Positions 1,073-10,026 of a DNA stretch of 10,101 nt are shown here, in pieces. Under the pieces are notes generated by a model. The model did not search any database. It was not told where the DNA came from and saw nothing but the letters and a program-made list of their open reading frames with translations. Location of the stretch: the UHGV virus genome UHGV-1546666; one strand, written 5' to 3'. How positions within the stretch are numbered: position 1 is the stretch's first letter; every line of letters starts with the position of its first letter. The DNA comes from a virus. The position numbers and the translations under genes were made by a program.

Positions 1073-2086
1073 TTACTTGTCTGAATCATCCAGTTCGTCT
1101 GTTTTCACATCCTCAAACCTTGGATGCAGGCGATTCATTTTTGCAATAAAATCTGAATAGTCGTTAGATAGCTTCATAATCGTAACGGTTGATGACAGAT
1201 GCTCTCTTAATTTTTGATATCCAATATTTGGCGTCAGCCCCTGAAACAACTTTGTACCTTTTGAGGCCTTTACGTTCTGCTTTTTAAGCTCCTCAAGGAT
1301 GTTTGGTGCCAATCTCTTGTAGACGATATCATTTGTCAAAACGCCAAAATACTGAGGCCGGAAGCGGGGATTTTCCGGCGGGTATTCTAAGCCCCTTAAC
1401 CTGAAAAGCTCTTCATAATAATCAGCAGGAAATGTTGTAATATAAGGTTGAATTTCCTTTGCGACAAAGGCCTCGAGTATTTTGGCGAGCGCATCTTTTT
1501 CTCTATCTCGCTGGTACCCCGTCGCTTCATCAACAAGCGCTATTATTCCGACTTTAGCTAATGAGCGCACCAGAATTTCAGCTTTCTTGGCTGTCTCTAA
1601 CTGGTTTGGCCTGGTGATAGCGCCTGCCTCTCTTGCCTTTAAATAAACATCGCAGACAAGAGGTATTATGGATGCGTCATAACCTTCCTGGACGGAGCCA
1701 GTAATCGTCTTGTATTTGACCTTATTGATCACACCCATAACATCTTGATTTATATATTTTTTAAGGTTTGCAGCATCCATAAAAGCGGGCATATTGATCA
1801 CCCCCTCTTCTTGAGGTGCTCTACCCCCTCTTTGTGGTCGGCCAAATGCTTTAAAAACAGAAGCTTGTGATATGATACGCCGTCCATTTTCGAGAACCGC
1901 GACATCTAATTCCGCATCACCGATCTTTAACTTTCCCTCATTCGCAGATACGGGCAATAAAGCTTTTTCTTTTTTTGCGGCAACAGCCTTTCTTGAGGAT
2001 TCTTTTCTTTGCTCTGCTGTCATTTTTGCCGCGCGTGCCTTACCGCCTTTGGCCTTCCCACTAACATCATCATTTTTCATGAGCAT
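1073..2086 (-). CDS. Hypothetical accessory (moron-like) protein, about 337 aa, with a Lys/Arg/Ala-rich basic N-terminal tail and a globular C-terminal domain; possibly a P63C-type phage domain
   Basis: ORF-track 355-aa frame, with the start moved to the in-frame ATG at 2086..2084 (MLMKNDD...) because the track's first codon lies upstream of the -10 element of its own promoter; a second ATG at 2080 is also possible. The N-terminus is GKAKGGKARAAKMTAEQRKESSRKAVAAKKEK. The P63C family call is a weak recollection only. Confidence 0.6.
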   Translation of the reverse strand: MLMKNDDVSGKAKGGKARAAKMTAEQRKESSRKAVAAKKEKALLPVSANEGKLKIGDAELDVAVLENGRRIISQASVFKAFGRPQRGGRAPQEEGVINMPAFMDAANLKKYINQDVMGVINKVKYKTITGSVQEGYDASIIPLVCDVYLKAREAGAITRPNQLETAKKAEILVRSLAKVGIIALVDEATGYQRDREKDALAKILEAFVAKEIQPYITTFPADYYEELFRLRGLEYPPENPRFRPQYFGVLTNDIVYKRLAPNILEELKKQNVKASKGTKLFQGLTPNIGYQKLREHLSSTVTIMKLSNDYSDFIAKMNRLHPRFEDVKTDELDDSDK

Positions 2087-2103
2087 ATCTCGTGTTGTGA
2101 TTG

Positions 2104-2140
2104 ATAAGTCAATTATACACATGCACGTTGTAACGTGCAA
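2104..2140 (-). promoter_or_regulatory. Sigma70-type promoter for the 1073..2086 gene, with overlapping palindromic operator
   Basis: On the minus strand: -35 TTGCAC (2140..2135), 17-nt spacer, consensus -10 TATAAT (2117..2112). The inverted repeat TGCACGTT-gt-AACGTGCA (2122..2139) overlaps the -35 and spacer, and a third TGCACGT half-site lies at 2151..2157. Confidence 0.5.
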
Positions 2141-2205
2141 TATTTAAATATGCACGTAAATTGCGAATCAGATAATGAGGAGACTTTCTCCCCCTTGCAC
2201 TGACA

Positions 2206-2307
2206 TCATGGTATTCTGCTCAAAACTAAATTTCTGGAGCGTTTCGTTGGAAGGTATTTGCAGTTTTCGCAGATGATGTCGGTGAAACTTCGTCGCTGTC
2301 GCCTCAT
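2206..2307 (-). pseudogene. ninE: ninE remnant: 26 NinE-like codons followed by unrelated sequence and an early stop (33 aa total)
   Basis: Minus-strand translation from ATG 2307..2305 reads [26 protein letters not shown] then LVLSRIP*. The first 26 residues match my recollection of lambda NinE ([29 protein letters not shown]..., 60 aa). The ATG overlaps the stop of the upstream ORF as ATGA. The ORF is below the 60-aa track threshold. Confidence 0.5.
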
Positions 2308-2906
2308 GCCGCCCTGTCTCCCCATCTTGCTTTCATTGTTTCATTTGCAAATCGCCAGAATCTTCCTTTGTGATATGAGCTTTCGCCATTACAGCAACGA
2401 CTAATTGACGAACTATCAAATCCTTCTCTGACAGCATCCATAGCTGCTTCATAATAAACCTCCTCCCCAGTTTTCATGTCAGTAGAAATAACAGCTTTAC
2501 TGGCAGGATGATCACCACTAAATTTACCTAGCGATATAGGTATTCTTCCATTTTGTTTATATCCGTGCTTTGAGTTTTCAGAATGTGATACCCATTCAAG
2601 GTTTTCAGCCCTATTGTCATCTCTTTGCCCATTTTTGTGATTAACTACCAAGCCATCACAGAACCCTGTACAGAATGCTTTCGCAACTATCCTGTGGGCG
2701 CTGTATTTCTTACCGTATACCTTTATTTGAAGATATCCTGTCGACTTGCACTTGAATGGTTTTACGCTAGTGCCATTAATTATTTTCTTATATGGCCTCT
2801 GTCTGGTTGATGTTACTGTAATTTCCCTCGTAATAGACCTGAAATTTCCTTTATTGCTAACCTGATAAAATGGAATTCCTTCGATATCTACCCAAACCTC
2901 AATCAT
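2304..2906 (-). CDS. HNH homing endonuclease (NUMOD4 motif plus HNH_3-type nuclease motif), 200 aa
   Basis: [21 protein letters not shown] is a NUMOD4-like motif. [11 protein letters not shown]...[25 protein letters not shown] is an HNH_3-type motif (His-Arg, HxNG, DNR, ENLEW). A GGAGG RBS sits 4-5 nt before the ATG, which overlaps the ninB stop. The region is visibly AT-richer than the lambda-core genes. Confidence 0.85.
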
Positions 2907-3315
2907 AATTCCTCCATTCGCTAAGATTAATTGAGTTCATGGCACAATATGCTTCTATGTAGTCCATTATTTCGGATATTTTTTTTACAGATAGAGTCGC
3001 CGTACTCTCTCTGATGTTTATTAGCTCACCTTCTAACCCTGATATAATCTCAGGGTGCTGGTTGGTTGCAATCTGCCAACCAGAAACGAATAACCCCTTC
3101 CAAAACTCAATATTTCTTGCTTTTCCATGATATGTAGCCTTCTTACTTATTTCAGATAGCATCGCGTGAAGGCGTGCATTTTGCCGAATGCTGCGGTTGC
3201 GTTCCTGAATGGTTACTACGATTGGTTTGGTTGGGTCTGGAAGAATTTGCTGGATAGCTTGAATGGCGTTCTGCTGATGGATGGGGCTTCTTAGTTCAAA
3301 TGTTAGTTTCCTCAT
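2899..3315 (-). CDS. ninB: NinB (Orf-family recombination mediator), about 138 aa
   Basis: Start placed at the internal Met of the 165-aa track ORF (MRKLTFELRSPIHQQNAIQAIQQILPDPTKPIVVTIQERNRS...), which aligns with the lambda NinB N-terminus MKKLTFEIRSPAHQQNAIHAVQQILPDPTKPIVVTIQERNRS. The C-terminal portion is divergent and ends ...SEWRNYD. Confidence 0.8.
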   Translation of the reverse strand: MRKLTFELRSPIHQQNAIQAIQQILPDPTKPIVVTIQERNRSIRQNARLHAMLSEISKKATYHGKARNIEFWKGLFVSGWQIATNQHPEIISGLEGELINIRESTATLSVKKISEIMDYIEAYCAMNSINLSEWRNYD

Positions 3316-3704: not shown

Positions 3705-3793
3705 TTCTTAAAGCCTCCAATTACTCTTCCCCAAATAAAAAGGCCTGCGATTACCAGCAGGCCTGTTACAAGCTCAGTGATGTAGATGGTCAT
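3701..3793 (-). CDS. Candidate 30-aa hydrophobic single-helix peptide (MTIYITELVTGLLVIAGLFIWGRVIGGFKK)
   Basis: Found by manual translation; it is below the track threshold. The ATG (3793..3791) overlaps the ren stop as ATGA and the stop overlaps the orf71 start as ATGA, so the frame is exactly bridged between two genes. A terminator-like hairpin lies inside it, which makes the call ambiguous. Confidence 0.35.
   Translation of the reverse strand: MTIYITELVTGLLVIAGLFIWGRVIGGFKK
3735..3764 (-). terminator. tR2-like hairpin downstream of ren
   Basis: 8-bp stem aggcctgc (3741-3748) / gcaggcct (3757-3764) with an 8-nt loop. On the minus strand it is followed by TTTTATTT. Position is analogous to lambda tR2, but it overlaps the candidate small ORF. 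Confidence 0.4.
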
Positions 3794-4080
3794 CTTTTAA
3801 CTCCATATACCGCCAATACCCGTTTCATCACTGCACTCTGGCGACACTCCTTAAAAATCAGGTTCGTGCTCACCTTTCCTTCCCGTTCTTCCCTGGTAGC
3901 AAACCGGTAATACACCGTTCGCCAGACCTTACCATCAATGACAAGGATTCCTGCCCGCGCCATTTTAGCCGCAGCCTGATTTATACTGGTTACGGTTGCG
4001 CCTGTTACCGCGGAAACGTCCTGTGCACAGAAGTTCTTATGCGCCCCGAGGTAATGAATAATTGCCTCTTTGCCCGTCAT
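3790..4080 (-). CDS. ren: Ren protein, 96 aa
   Basis: MTGKEAIIHYLGAHKNFCAQDVSAVTGATVTSINQAAAKMARAGILVIDGKVWRTVYYRFATREEREGK... is near-identical to my recollection of lambda Ren (same length and start). Confidence 0.85.
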   Translation of the reverse strand: MTGKEAIIHYLGAHKNFCAQDVSAVTGATVTSINQAAAKMARAGILVIDGKVWRTVYYRFATREEREGKVSTNLIFKECRQSAVMKRVLAVYGVKR

Positions 4081-4147: not shown

Positions 4148-4774
4148 TTAGAGGTCTGCCGCCCATGACAGTTGTTTTACTGGTTCAGGTATCGTCTCAC
4201 CACGGTTAATTCTCGCAGTCATATGGACAAGCTCATCTGCGGCCTTACGGCGTAATTCCGCATCAGTAAGCGCATTGGCCCGCATGTTCTGATACAGGTT
4301 GGTAACCAGCCAGTAGTGCGCGTTTGATTTCCACGGATAAGACTCTGCATCCGGATACAGGCCTCGCTTCCGGCAATACTCGTAAACCATATCAACCAGC
4401 TCGCTGGCGTTTGGCAGCCCGGCGGTAACGGATGCTTCTTCCCGGCACCAGGCGACAAACTGCCCGGGTGATGGCAGGAATGGTCGATTCTGCCGACGGG
4501 CTACGCGCATTCCAGCGTTAACCTGTTCCATTGTGGTGATCCCGTTTTCCCGGAAAGCCAGAACCCACTGGCGGCGGATTTCGTTCAGTTCATTCTGGTC
4601 ACGGTTAGCCAGGCTCGCCGGGAAAGTTGCCAGTAACTGGCTGAACACACCGTTGATGATCTGCGCTACCTGCTGTACCTGCGGCTTTTCGTCGTACTGT
4701 TCCGGCATGTTGTTGGCGATCCGACGCATCTGCTCACGGTCAAAGTTAACCATCTGTGCGGCGATGTTTTTCAT
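4148..4774 (-). CDS. P: Replication protein P (DnaB helicase loader), C-terminally frameshifted: 208 aa ending ...KQLSWAADL
   Basis: Residues 1 to about 202 match lambda P (MKNIAAQMVNFDREQMRRIANNMPEQYDEKPQVQQVAQIINGVF...). Downstream, a shifted frame (4170..4081) encodes MGGRPLNRAQALAKIAEIKAKFGLKGASI*, which is the conserved P C-terminus and ends overlapping the ren start. Confidence 0.85.
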   Translation of the reverse strand: MKNIAAQMVNFDREQMRRIANNMPEQYDEKPQVQQVAQIINGVFSQLLATFPASLANRDQNELNEIRRQWVLAFRENGITTMEQVNAGMRVARRQNRPFLPSPGQFVAWCREEASVTAGLPNASELVDMVYEYCRKRGLYPDAESYPWKSNAHYWLVTNLYQNMRANALTDAELRRKAADELVHMTARINRGETIPEPVKQLSWAADL

Positions 4775-5650
4775 AAATCCACCCCGTAAATCCAGTCAGT
4801 GTTTGTCAGGTCGAGTTTTGGTTTGCTGGCTGTCACGCCTGCCTGTTGCTTGTTACGGTTGATTTCGAGCTGGGTCCACTTGTCGCGGAGTTTGGCCGGA
4901 CTTAGCACGTTACCGGACCAGAAGTTGTCCTGGCAGGCCCAGCGGAACAGCACGCACATGTCGCGGTGGTTACGTCCGTCACGTTCACGCATCAGGCGGA
5001 TATCGTTAGCCCACCCTGCAAAATTCGGTTTTCTGGCTGATGGTGCGATGGTCTTCACCATGTCAAACATCCACTCTGCGGCGGTCAGGTCTTCTGCTGT
5101 TCCCCACTTGCTGCCGCTCTGAATTGCAGCATCCGGTTTAACCACAGAAAGATCGTTTTCTGGCTGGTCAGAGGATTCGCCAGAATTCTCGGACGAATAA
5201 TCTTTTCTTTTTTCTTTTGTAATAGTGTCTTTTGTGTCCCCCTGTTTTGAGGGATAGCAATCCCCTAATTTGAGGGATGTTTTATCCCTCGTTTTGAGGG
5301 ATGCACCATTCTGAGATGTTTTTATTTGGTCCAAACATGCCGCCTTGCTGCTTGATAATATTCATTCTGACGAGTTCTAACTTGGCTTCATTGCACCGTT
5401 TGACAGGTAACTTTGTAATCTCGCTAAGTTGAGAATCGGTGATTCTGTCCATTGGTTTATTCCACCCATAGGTTTTACGCAGAATGGCAAGCAGCACTTT
5501 AAACTGTCGCTTGGTCAGATCTGCGCCTGAATAAGCCTCAATCAGCATATTTGATAGTCTGGCGTAACCATCATCGAGATCTGCCACATTACGCTCCTGT
5601 CCGGCAAAGTTACTTCTGCCGAAGTTGAGTATTTTTGCTGTATTTGTCAT
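4771..5650 (-). pseudogene. O: Replication initiator O, split by a frameshift inside the origin iteron array into an N-terminal 122-aa ORF (5282..5650) and a C-terminal 187-aa ORF (4771..5334)
   Basis: ORF 5282..5650 (MTNTAKILNFGRSNFAGQERNVADLDDGYARLSNMLIEAYSGADLTKRQFK...ISEWCIPQNEG*) matches the lambda O N-terminal domain. ORF 4771..5334 contains KTRDKTSLKLGDCYPSKQGDTKDTITKEKRKDYSSENSGESSDQ... to the C-terminus ...TDWIYGVDL, matching the lambda O linker and C-domain. The two are in different frames and overlap by 53 nt. Confidence 0.8.
5237..5301. repeat. Replication origin iterons (three O-binding repeats) with flanking AT-rich region
   Basis: Three inverted-repeat iterons on the plus strand: tccccctgttttgaggga (5237-5254), tcccctaatttgaggga (5261-5277) and tccctcgttttgaggga (5285-5301). 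The gagggat cores are spaced 23 and 24 bp apart. An A/T-rich tract (about 5200-5235) follows in the direction of O transcription, as in lambda ori. Confidence 0.75.
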
Positions 5651-5682
5651 AATGACTCCTGTTGATAGATCCAGTAATGACC

Positions 5683-5982
5683 TCAGAATTCCATCTGGAT
5701 TTGTTCAGAACGCTCGGTCTTGCACACCGGGCGTTTTTTATTGGTGAGTTCATCAAGCGCATACTTAAAAGCCCTGCTAATCGGACTGATGTCTGATGCC
5801 ATTCCGAAAGCACACAAGACCGAAGCAATAAATCTCCAGTCCGTTCTGCTTATCTTCGATTCATGACAGCCAATCATCTTTGCCAGACCGCGCTGGGTAA
5901 GCGTTGACAGGTTGATAAGTAAATCTGTTTCTGCGCGATCAACGTCGCGCTGTGATAGTTTGCTGTAACTTGTTTGTTCCAT
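5683..5982 (-). CDS. cII: CII transcriptional activator homolog, 99 aa
   Basis: The C-terminus LTNKKRPVCKTERSEQIQMEF is near-identical to lambda CII (ILTNKKRPAATERSEQIQMEF). The central HTH-like segment is TQRGLAKMIGCHESKISR. Position is immediately downstream of cro and nutR. Confidence 0.85.
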   Translation of the reverse strand: MEQTSYSKLSQRDVDRAETDLLINLSTLTQRGLAKMIGCHESKISRTDWRFIASVLCAFGMASDISPISRAFKYALDELTNKKRPVCKTERSEQIQMEF

Positions 5983-6121: not shown

Positions 6122-6340
6122 TTAGGCGGCTTTGTTACTGGATGGAGGGAAAACATCATCCAAAGAACATTGGCACCCTAACTTCCTGAGGCCTTCTACG
6201 ATCTTTCGGCAATCGTTAAGTCTAGGAGTACGGATATTCAGCTCATAGTTGGCGATGCGGGATTGCCCCCAACCAATTGCCGAAGCCAGTACAGCTTGCG
6301 AAACTCCGATTTTTTTTCGCTGCTGGGCAATTTTGTTCAT
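6122..6340 (-). CDS. cro: Cro-like repressor (small HTH protein), about 72 aa
   Basis: Track ORF trimmed to the internal ATG at 6340 (MNKIAQQRKKIGVSQAVLASAIGWGQSRIANYE...), which has RBS GGGAG and lies downstream of the predicted pR. The HTH-like segment is GVSQAVLASAIGWGQSRI. It is divergently transcribed from cI. Confidence 0.7.
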   Translation of the reverse strand: MNKIAQQRKKIGVSQAVLASAIGWGQSRIANYELNIRTPRLNDCRKIVEGLRKLGCQCSLDDVFPPSSNKAA

Positions 6341-6448
6341 TGCGGTCTCCCTAGTATTAATCACACACCCATTACACACAATTTGTGATTAACAGTCAAC
6401 CTCAATTCGTGTACAGAGTTCAATCACGTTGCGTGTTACATTTAAAGG
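6341..6448. promoter_or_regulatory. Divergent pR/pRM promoter region with oR operators
   Basis: pR on the minus strand: -35 TTGACT (6399..6394), 17-nt spacer, -10 TGTAAT (6376..6371). Operator-like dyads with CACA...TGTG half-sites: cacaatttgtg (about 6377-6387), cacgttgcgtg (about 6424-6434), and the 9-bp arms ttaatcaca / tgtgattaa at 6357-6365 / 6383-6391. The weak -10-like tacatt 7 nt before the cI ATG suggests a leaderless cI transcript, as in lambda. Confidence 0.55.
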
Positions 6449-7096
6449 ATGAAAACGATGCATGAAATTATCGGGGAAAGGATCAAGTCCCTTAGAGAAG
6501 CTAAAGGACTTAGCCAGGCTCAATTGGCCAAGCTTTGCGGCTGGGCTGCGCCTTCACGCCTGGGGAACTACGAGTTAGGAACAAGAAAGGTTAGCGCGGA
6601 TGACGCGCTGGTTCTTGGGGCGGCACTCGGCGTATCTCCGGCAAAAATAATGTTTGGCGAGGATTCAGACGCTGTATTTCGCCAATATGAGTACCCGTTA
6701 TTTTCTTCAGTGCAGGCCGGGCCGTTTTCGGAGGTTGGAAGCTACACAGCAAGCGATGCAAAGGCATGGGTCCCAACGACCACAAAAGCCAGCGAAAAAG
6801 CTTTCTGGCTTGAGGTGAAAGGCCATTCTATGACTGCGCCACAGGGCGTAAGGCCGAGTTTTCCTGAGGGTATGCTGATACTCGTTGATCCGGCCGAGCC
6901 GGTAGAGTCTGGGGATTTCTGCGTGGCTTCTGCAAATGGTGATTCAGAGGCAACGTTCAAGAAGTATGAGAAGGATGCAGGGGTTAGTTACTTGGTTCCA
7001 TTGAATCCGGCATACAGAACCCTGGACTGCGATCACACATGCCGCATCATAGGCAAGGTAGTTAAGGCTCAGTGGCCTGAAGAGACGTTTGGATGA
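6449..7096 (+). CDS. cI: CI-type prophage repressor: N-terminal HTH plus C-terminal S24 (LexA-like) autopeptidase domain, 215 aa
   Basis: N-terminal HTH segment [24 protein letters not shown]. Ala-Gly cleavage site in SSVQAGPF. Catalytic Ser in KGHSMTAP and Lys in RIIGKVVKA. Divergent from cro with operators between. Confidence 0.9.
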
Positions 7097-7146
7097 TGGA
7101 TGGTCGCAGAGATGCTCGTAGAGCATACAGCGATGCAGGAGAATTT

Positions 7147-7581
7147 ATGGCACTTAATTTAGAAAGAATATCTTTTATAACCCCATTTGATAGCAGCGAA
7201 GAACCCAACCAACCGACGCTTAATTTTACATGCAATGAATTTCCTGCGCGGCTATCGATTGATTTCAGGGTTGGTATGATCGGGTTGAAACCAAATTCAA
7301 GATATAATTTGGGTATTATGGTAATCCCCGCGCACCTAATTATAAAAAAAGGTGAGGAAATTCAATTCCCTGACGGCTCTTCGGAATCAGTTTCACTTTT
7401 CATCGATACGAAAGATAGCCATTTTGAAACAGGGGTTGGCGGACAGGTAATAGTAACATTGAAAGAAATTAGGGTCCCAGCTAAAGGGCTGTATAGTGTT
7501 ATAGGGATATTGCAAGATAATGAAGACCCTAAAAATGAACTTCATAAAAATGAATCATTTTTCACCGTAGAGCTATTATGA
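7147..7581 (+). CDS. Hypothetical protein A of the cI-linked accessory cassette, about 144 aa, no recognised domain
   Basis: Start chosen at the ATG at 7147 with RBS AGGAG and a 6-nt spacer (MALNLERISFITPFDSSEEPNQ...). The track's longer ORF starting at 7093 lacks a good RBS. AT-rich relative to cI. The stop overlaps the next gene's start (ATGA at 7578-7581). Confidence 0.6.
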   Translation: MALNLERISFITPFDSSEEPNQPTLNFTCNEFPARLSIDFRVGMIGLKPNSRYNLGIMVIPAHLIIKKGEEIQFPDGSSESVSLFIDTKDSHFETGVGGQVIVTLKEIRVPAKGLYSVIGILQDNEDPKNELHKNESFFTVELL

Positions 7582-8198
7582 GTGACGACAGTAATTTAAA
7601 TAATCATGGAAAGCAAGACACCAACATATCTGAAAGCCGGAGGTTGAAGGTTGTTGGCGGTTCCGATTTTGAGGCTGAATTTGATAATTCTCCCACCAAG
7701 GTGCAAAATAATTACATAAAACCGCCACAAACGGAGGAAGAAGTGGGAACGATCAGCAGAGAGGAACTTGATGCTCGCTTAGCTGCTAATAAAGCAGAGA
7801 TGGAGTCTATTGCTTCTTCCATTAGGACTGACATGGCTCTATCTCGTGAAAGCGTTAATGTCCAATTTGCATCACTTAATGCAGCCATAAGCTCTCTATC
7901 GTCCAAGATCGATGGAAAGATGGATAGCGCTGCTGGCGATATAAAAGCAATTAATGGGAGATTCGAAGGAATTCAAGGACAAATAACAGGGGTTAATACC
8001 GCAATTAGTGGTGTTCAGTCGGGTATTTCTATACGATTAGCCATTTTTAGTGTCATTATCGCTGTAATAGTTGCGATTCCCGGGCTGGTATCAGCTTTAA
8101 AGTCAGACCACGCACCTTTGCAACAGCCTTCCACTTTGCAAGCGCCGCCACAAAATACCCAGCCAACAGACAACAAAAAAATCACTCCCCAGCATTAA
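7578..8198 (+). CDS. Hypothetical protein B of the cI-linked cassette, 206 aa: polar N-terminus, Ser/Ala/Gly-rich coiled-coil-like segment, single C-terminal transmembrane helix, Pro/Gln-rich tail
   Basis: Track ORF, translationally coupled to protein A. The hydrophobic stretch RLAIFSVIIAVIVAIPGLVSAL lies near the C-terminus. The middle segment has heptad-like repeats (ASLNAAISSLSSKIDGKMDSAAGDIKAINGRFEGIQGQITGVNTAISGVQSGI). A terminator follows directly. Confidence 0.65.
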   Translation: MSDDSNLNNHGKQDTNISESRRLKVVGGSDFEAEFDNSPTKVQNNYIKPPQTEEEVGTISREELDARLAANKAEMESIASSIRTDMALSRESVNVQFASLNAAISSLSSKIDGKMDSAAGDIKAINGRFEGIQGQITGVNTAISGVQSGISIRLAIFSVIIAVIVAIPGLVSALKSDHAPLQQPSTLQAPPQNTQPTDNKKITPQH

Positions 8199-9819: not shown

Positions 9820-9885
9820 ATATGCATACCAATAACGCTTCACTAGAGGCGTTTTCGTTATGTGTAAATAAATAAGGAGCACACC

Positions 9886-10026
9886 ATGCAATATGCCATT
9901 GCAGGGTGGCCTGTTGCTGGCTGCCCTTCCGAATCTTTACTTGAACGAATCACCCGTAAATTACGTGACGGATGGAAACGCCTTATCGACATACTTAATC
10001 AGCCAGGAGTTCCCAAAAATGGATAA
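9886..10026 (+). CDS. cIII: CIII (FtsH inhibitor), 46 aa, apparently truncated by a premature stop
   Basis: Manual translation gives MQYAIAGWPVAGCPSESLLERITRKLRDGWKRLIDILNQPGVPKNG*, which matches lambda CIII (54 aa from memory). RBS TAAGGAG. After the TAA the same frame still encodes NTYGYPD*, the expected CIII tail. Below the track threshold. Confidence 0.75.
   Translation: MQYAIAGWPVAGCPSESLLERITRKLRDGWKRLIDILNQPGVPKNG

Follow-up and report, generated by a model that had tools for sequence, protein, structure and literature searches.

The DNA studied here is a stretch of 10,101 nucleotides from a virus (UHGV virus genome UHGV-1546666), which we call the window, and it includes the early-right operon of a lambdoid prophage, oriented on the minus strand. 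On that strand cro, cII, O, P and ren follow one another, a cI-like repressor gene lies on the other, and after ren come genes for NinB, an HNH endonuclease, a P63C-domain protein and an antirepressor (coordinates of the features discussed are collected in Table 1). At the DNA level, the O-P segment has matches in 177 phage records, the best of them to Stx1 phages and H-19B (97.5-97.8%) and the next to phage 21 and lambda (96.5-96.6%).

Some further features surround this region. A 200-aa ORF at 2304-2906 (minus strand), between NinB and the P63C-domain gene, has NUMOD4 and HNH_3 domains on matching contigs, and we read it as an insert of the homing-endonuclease kind within the nin region. Between the repressor gene and N, 7093-8198 (plus strand) contains two ORFs, of 162 and 206 aa; on matching contigs no Pfam family was found for either. 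An Rfam scan of the window reported only the cIII thermoregulator element (Lambda_thermo, 9873-9931, plus strand, full length, 88.5 bits), and the OOP family was absent from its results. An oop-like antisense unit at 5625-5737 (plus strand), at the cII/O junction, was located by alignment to lambda together with a promoter and terminator scan; it can be aligned with lambda oop, from which it differs in an altered terminator stem that is 3 nt longer.

Table 1. Features of the early-right region, with positions in the window.
Feature	Position	Strand	Remarks
cI-like repressor gene	6449-7096	+	
cro	6122-6379	-	
cII	5683-5982	-	
oop-like unit, parts	promoter-like site 5625-5653; terminator hairpin 5707-5737	+	
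O, two pieces	5282-5650 and 4771-5334	-	
O N-terminal ORF, 122 aa	5282-5650	-	lambda O residues 1-122 with G13S and L37I; its TAA is created by the deletion
Rest of O, +1 frame	4771-5295	-	lambda O residues 126-299, 0 amino-acid changes
Hybrid iteron 1/2, ATCCCTCAAAACGAGGGAT	5284-5302	-	core identical to lambda iteron 1, then the spacer of iteron 2, TAAAAC
Deletion junction, the surviving AAAACGAGGGA copy	5285-5295	-	exact breakpoint ambiguous within the repeat
Iteron 3*, ATCCCTCAAATTAGGGGAT	5260-5278	-	Stx-phage variant with A for lambda's G; naming as in PMC7466680
Iteron 4, ATCCCTCAAAACAGGGGGA	5237-5255	-	
AT-rich unwinding region of ori	5196-5236	-	directly adjoins the last iteron; identical in phage 21 and H-19B (alignment)
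P, frameshifted, 208 aa	4148-4774	-	202 native residues, SWAADL, stop
P 4-bp deletion junction	4169-4172	-	lambda CAACTTCCTGTC, window CAACTGTC
ren	3790-4080	-	

The split O gene, the iteron array and P

The first-pass annotation of this DNA had placed a frameshift in O inside the origin, leaving the gene as separate N-terminal and C-terminal ORFs, and had noted that the first iteron there codes for IPQNEG in one frame and KTRDK in the other. Reading of the sequence confirms all of this. On the minus strand, the upstream frame reads ATC CCT CAA AAC GAG GGA TAA, giving ...EWCIPQNEG and then a stop that ends at 5282, while the +1 frame reads TCC CTC AAA ACG AGG GAT AAA, or SLKTRDK, and continues (SLKTRDKTSLKLGDCYPSKQGDTKD...) to 4771, where it reaches the normal O stop overlapping the start of P. 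No single polypeptide spans O in this arrangement: one frame ends with residue 122, and the other codes for residues 126-299. The downstream ORF, when called mechanically (4771-5334, minus strand, 187 aa), begins at a TTG at 5334 and has no credible start of its own.

The break leaves the origin-binding domain whole. Within the 122-aa ORF, residues 22-115 match PF04492 (Phage_rep_O) over profile positions 2-95, that is 94 of 95, with E=1.4e-36. A PDB sequence search with lambda O returned no solved structure, and the point of truncation is placed here by the limits of the Pfam domain, not on a structure. Re-inserting 20 bp in the origin produces a 900-nt ORF whose product, a 299-aa O, matches lambda O except for G13S and L37I, with 18 nucleotide differences. 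Two amino-acid changes against 18 nucleotide differences show that O was under purifying selection until recently, and the lesion is therefore young.

The iteron array at the break has three members whose cores lie 23 and 24 bp apart, as had been described. A repeat finder reports a 20-nt unit in three copies, at 5237-5256, 5260-5279 and 5284-5303, with start-to-start distances of 23 and 24 on the plus strand; taken in the direction of O, the starts of the three iterons are spaced 24 and then 23 bp. A search with the lambda iteron 18-mer ATCCCTCAAAACGAGGGA, allowing up to 3 mismatches, gives 2 matches in the window where 0.01 are expected from shuffled sequences, the third copy (iteron 3*) being more than 3 bases away from this 18-mer and detected by the repeat finder instead. 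On the minus strand the array reads ATCCCTCAAAACGAGGGAT-aaaac-ATCCCTCAAATTAGGGGAT-tgct-ATCCCTCAAAACAGGGGGA, followed by the AT-rich tract, and it is flanked by ATCTCAGAATGGTG and CACAAAAGACAC. An ori-lambda iteron is an element of about 18-19 bp with hyphenated dyad symmetry; the window has three such copies, the first of them, the hybrid, with perfect 7-bp dyad arms. This number (three, spaced 24/23) compares with four in lambda and six in Stx phages. [quoted passage not shown]

P carries a lesion as well, which the first-pass annotation had also proposed and which alignment to lambda shows to be real: CAA CTT CCT GTC in lambda has become CAA CTG TC in the window, a deletion of 4 bp. The truncated product retains the full PF06992 profile (residues 38-198, profile positions 1-162 of 162, E=2.8e-62) and is missing the C-terminal lasso helix. 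In lambda P this helix (residues 211-227) binds the DH-LH interface of DnaB and is probably the first element of P to contact DnaB (PMC12661323). Solved structures of P exist, and on this structural model the window P would be expected to have lost DnaB binding.

The deletion between iterons 1 and 2

The first-pass annotation had suggested an alignment with the lambda ori as a check on its proposal that one repeat unit was deleted, and that alignment locates a single gap in the iteron array. The flanks of the array are nearly identical to those in lambda, phage 21 and H-19B. The gap measures exactly 20 bp against lambda or phage 21, where it is the sole indel in O, and 59 bp against H-19B, where O is again free of other indels. 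The iterons of lambda (NC_001416) are annotated at 39034, 39054, 39078 and 39101, and the start spacings are 20/24/23 for the four iterons of lambda and phage 21 and 20/19/20/24/23 for the six of H-19B. One iteron unit is indeed missing relative to lambda, with a +1 shift of the O frame; what has to be corrected is its size, which had been given as 23 bp and is 20 bp, the spacing between iterons 1 and 2. Losses of 20, 23 or 59 bp all produce the same +1 shift.

The gap sits between two exact copies of an 11-bp direct repeat, AAAACGAGGGA, one in iteron 1 and one in iteron 2. The iteron that survives at this place takes its left half from iteron 1 (CCCTC, against CCCCT in iteron 2), the spacer after it (TAAAAC) is that of iteron 2, and the earlier impression that it is a hybrid of the two is thereby borne out. 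We suppose that the 20 bp would have been lost through misalignment, by replication slippage or short-homology recombination, between the two copies of AAAACGAGGGA, which lie 20 bp apart. Since the origin sits in the part of O that codes for the linker between its domains, loss of the unit shifts the frame by +1 and places a stop right after the origin-binding domain, so that the C-terminal two thirds of O are no longer joined to that domain.

In common with the ori of lambda and phage 21, the window origin has the same AT-rich region and iteron sequences and the same place within the O segment that codes for the linker. Its O is 11-18 substitutions away from theirs (the protein, once restored, departs from lambda O in 2 of its 299 residues). 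The origin differs from theirs in lacking one 20-bp unit, in having three iterons and an O out of frame, and in the Stx-type A in iteron 3. The Stx-phage type of origin (H-19B, 933W, P27) has six iterons, named 1, 1', 1'', 2, 3* and 4 (PMC7466680). Iteron 3* is common to this type and the window, and L37I is common to the window and P27 O, whereas the window has 59 bp fewer, no iterons 1' and 1'', the 1/2 hybrid, and a broken O in place of one of 312 aa.

One further array bears on how the window array could have been derived from a six-iteron one. An IMG/VR contig (UViG_2671180417_000002) has a five-iteron array with the same junction, and the 5' half of its O is identical to that of the window. 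The existence of a five-iteron array with the 20-bp junction on an identical O 5' half indicates that the net loss of 59 bp relative to the six-iteron Stx/H-19B type probably arose as 20 + 39 bp. A plausible path leads from six iterons to five (20 bp lost, with the frameshift) and then to three, through a 39-bp loss between iterons 1 and 1'', which are identical; the other order, from six to four to three, is an alternative for the window.

Other carriers of the junction and array size

Two further contigs, of 15 kb (L003) and 10.5 kb (L004), match all 10,101 bases of the window at 99.8% without gaps and have the same split O and the same 208-aa P. Two short contigs have the same ori junction; counting the window, at least five assemblies, independent of one another and made from different samples, show it. 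The 17-18 differences between the window and L003 and L004 fall nearly all at 4397-4750, in P, with two more in O of L003, at 5041 and 5044; the segment 4397-4750 looks like a recombination or gene-conversion patch from another lambdoid prophage.

Among complete E. coli genomes, 1,334 of 5,426 match the ori region of the window, and an ungapped match to the three-iteron arrangement is found in only two of the 5,426, Rb-23 and 1002W03 (plain megablast merges the two flanking pieces, and the ungapped matches were counted with an E-value cutoff out of reach for anything but a full-length match without gaps). In both, O is a pseudogene annotated as 'frameshifted' in RefSeq (MWM20_RS09865 in Rb-23, WAZ54_RS19520 in 1002W03) and P is intact, so loss of O is not always accompanied by loss of P. 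A third genome, 2003-3014 (NMK58_RS20685), has five iterons, arranged as in H-19B but for the same missing 20 bp, in an array unique among the complete E. coli genomes; here, too, RefSeq marks O as 'frameshifted' and P is intact. The junction of the pseudogenes in all three of these unrelated strains, CCCTCAAAACGAGGGATAAAAC, is identical to that of the window, whereas their immunity regions are different ones and their O haplotypes lie 9-20 substitutions from that of the window.

Functional phages that had the same three iterons with O in one frame would speak against a deletion; the arrangement gives no single-piece match in any of 50,697 phage records, and it cannot be in frame. The exact 29-nt junction occurs in none of the GTDB species-representative genomes or JGI metagenome contigs and in 1 contig of IMG/VR. 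Exact look-ups among 15 billion proteins return each frameshifted N-terminal product from only 4-12 contigs, all E. coli, and such look-ups overcount frameshift carriers, because the partial O products of two NCBI draft contigs that end within iteron 1 are identical to the genuine 122-aa product. Those two contigs were considered as carriers of the deletion and rejected, as both simply stop at iteron 1.

The O alleles that bear the junction do not group together in a table of variable sites, and each is nearest to a different intact allele. The allele of the five-iteron IMG/VR contig is 2 nt from the intact four-iteron allele of E. coli 2013C-3264, that of 2003-3014 is 5 nt from intact H-19B, and that of Rb-23 stands 18-24 nt apart from all others; the window O is a mosaic, 6 nt from the IMG/VR allele overall and identical to it in the 5' half. 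From this pattern, the 20-bp deletion would either have recurred or have moved between haplotypes by recombination, and it suggests that the 11-bp repeat AAAACGAGGGA is a minor, recurrent deletion hot spot.

Array size varies among intact alleles as well. E. coli 2013C-3264 has an intact 299-aa O and four iterons, its array being the six-iteron one minus 39 bp, and a 325-aa O protein has three IPQNEG units, which implies an array of eight iterons. Arrays of 3, 4, 5, 6 and, with this protein, 8 iterons are thus seen. The in-frame changes observed involve 39 bp and connect arrays of 4, 6 and 8 iterons; a change of 24 bp would also keep the frame. Calculated from the spacings, 1 of the 6 unit deletions possible in the lambda array and 4 of the 15 possible in a six-iteron array are divisible by three; since so few are multiples of three, most unit deletions destroy O.

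Consequences for replication and for the prophage

In lambda, O binds ori and P brings DnaB to the ori-bound O, and the C-terminal part of O is required for its action (Hayes 2018; PMC6022878). O is null as an amber fragment, and loss of no more than the last five residues, which leaves 294 aa, already makes it inactive (PMC6022878). By analogy, O 1-122 with the remainder out of frame would not be able to nucleate a preprimosome, and a null phenotype of both O and P may be inferred from lambda genetics; the prophage would then lack a theta replication start of its own after derepression.

The origin itself is another matter. It had been proposed that origin function was probably lost, and this stands for the initiator O, and for P, while the cis-acting origin still has its AT-rich region intact and three iterons of consensus sequence. 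Work cited in PMC7466680 describes normal growth for a lambda with three iterons (Moore et al. 1981) and activity in vitro with no more than the two AT-proximal ones (Dodson et al. 1986; Wickner and McKenney 1987). The three-iteron origin would therefore probably still be usable in cis if O and P were supplied in trans, for example by a related phage. Plasmids derived from P27 needed iterons 1 and 1' (PMC7466680), which makes competence in cis likely but not certain.

Taken together, we give a probability of about 0.85 to the reading that this is the cII-O/ori-P-ren module of a lambda-type E. coli prophage, inactivated by two small deletions. Both O and P, essential phage genes, have inactivating frameshifts, and a cryptic or decaying prophage, as the first-pass annotation had concluded, is the best reading of an element seen over 10-15 kb of prophage. 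As such it is a case of routine recent pseudogenisation, and annotation pipelines already flag such O alleles in related genomes; the mildly new point is that the same iteron-unit deletion is found on several O haplotypes.

Lesions of this kind have laboratory counterparts. Small out-of-frame indels in O are typical of the cells that outlive the 'replicative killing' set off by derepression of a trapped lambda prophage (PMC6022878); P is toxic by itself, and survivors defective in O or P are selected from trapped prophages (PMC6022878 and PMC3640518). Survival of derepression may, by analogy, be the selective rationale for the O and P lesions. The lambda ori- 'r' deletions from Rambach's selection (r99, 12 bp; r96, 15 bp; r93 and r98, 24 bp; PMC6022878) resemble that of the window in being small, in lying inside ori and in having arisen in prophages selected for loss of replication, and r93 and r98 remove iteron sequence. 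They differ in that every r mutant that has been sequenced keeps the reading frame and retains an O protein, whereas the window has lost 20 bp out of frame, and in that they lie at iterons 3/4 or the AT-rich region, whereas the window deletion lies at the iteron 1/2 end. Closer in effect are the RK- 'ilr' mutants of the Hayes laboratory, whose small out-of-frame indels in O (and P) put an end to replication initiation, so that the host withstands derepression; these are laboratory isolates and the window allele is natural, and the part of PMC6022878 available to us describes no ilr mutant with the junction of the window.

Could the remnant be of use to its host? O 1-122, oop RNA and the iterons might hinder superinfecting lambda-rep phages, with the host spared replicative killing and the toxicity of P. 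Plasmids with oop and iterons 3-4 do block lambda-rep phages (the 'inhibition phenotype', PMC3349717), non-immune exclusion is seen on induction of cryptic prophages whose P is inactive (PMC3349717), and the P toxicity and the selection of O/P-defective survivors described above fit this picture, as do the retention of the oop-like unit and an intact O N-terminal domain and the presence of the same deletion on several haplotypes. The published exclusion, however, needed multicopy plasmids or derepression, whereas the element in the window is single-copy and has an intact cI-like repressor gene; carriers are rare, at 4-12 contigs per allele among the 15 billion proteins, and nothing here shows selection after the split. 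We regard such usefulness as unlikely, and it is compatible with the explanation by decay rather than an alternative to it. A more specific version, in which the 122-aa O domain, oop and the iterons would act as a dominant-negative 'origin decoy' against lambda-type phages and the 11-bp repeat hot spot would yield protective remnants, seems to us more doubtful still.

It is hardly credible that the split is tolerated, with full-length O made by +1 ribosomal frameshifting within 5282-5334 or with a two-piece initiator assembled from separate halves. The break does fall exactly in the inter-domain linker, the halves are undamaged (0 changes in residues 126-299) and a TTG opens the downstream frame at 5334, but a recent lesion explains undamaged halves equally well. 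Reading of the 5282-5334 overlap found no signal resembling a known +1 frameshift site, and RNA folding of the region gave only the hairpins expected from palindromic iterons (z = -2.4), a result that carries no weight either way. P is broken in the same element, truncations of lambda O are null (PMC6022878), and the arrangement is seen in 0 of 50,697 phage records and in 2 of 5,426 complete E. coli genomes although 1,334 match the ori.

That the true genome has at least four iterons and an intact O, of which an assembler collapsed one unit, is very unlikely: the iterons are short tandem-like repeats, and the two draft contigs that break at iteron 1 show that assemblers struggle at ori, probably because several lambdoid prophages share its sequence, but the assemblies agree, with the identical junction in at least five of them, in three finished chromosomes and in one IMG/VR contig, the exact repeat shared is 11 bp, below the usual assembly k-mers, and an unrelated 4-bp deletion in P accompanies the junction in the same contigs.

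For the decaying lambda-type prophage that we favour, O is better annotated as one frameshifted pseudogene than as two genes, and the prophage should be scored as unable to replicate alone, which bears on the prediction of inducibility. More generally, ori-lambda is located within the gene for its initiator and consists of repeats with periods of 19-24 bp, and for this reason its iteron array varies in size in nature.
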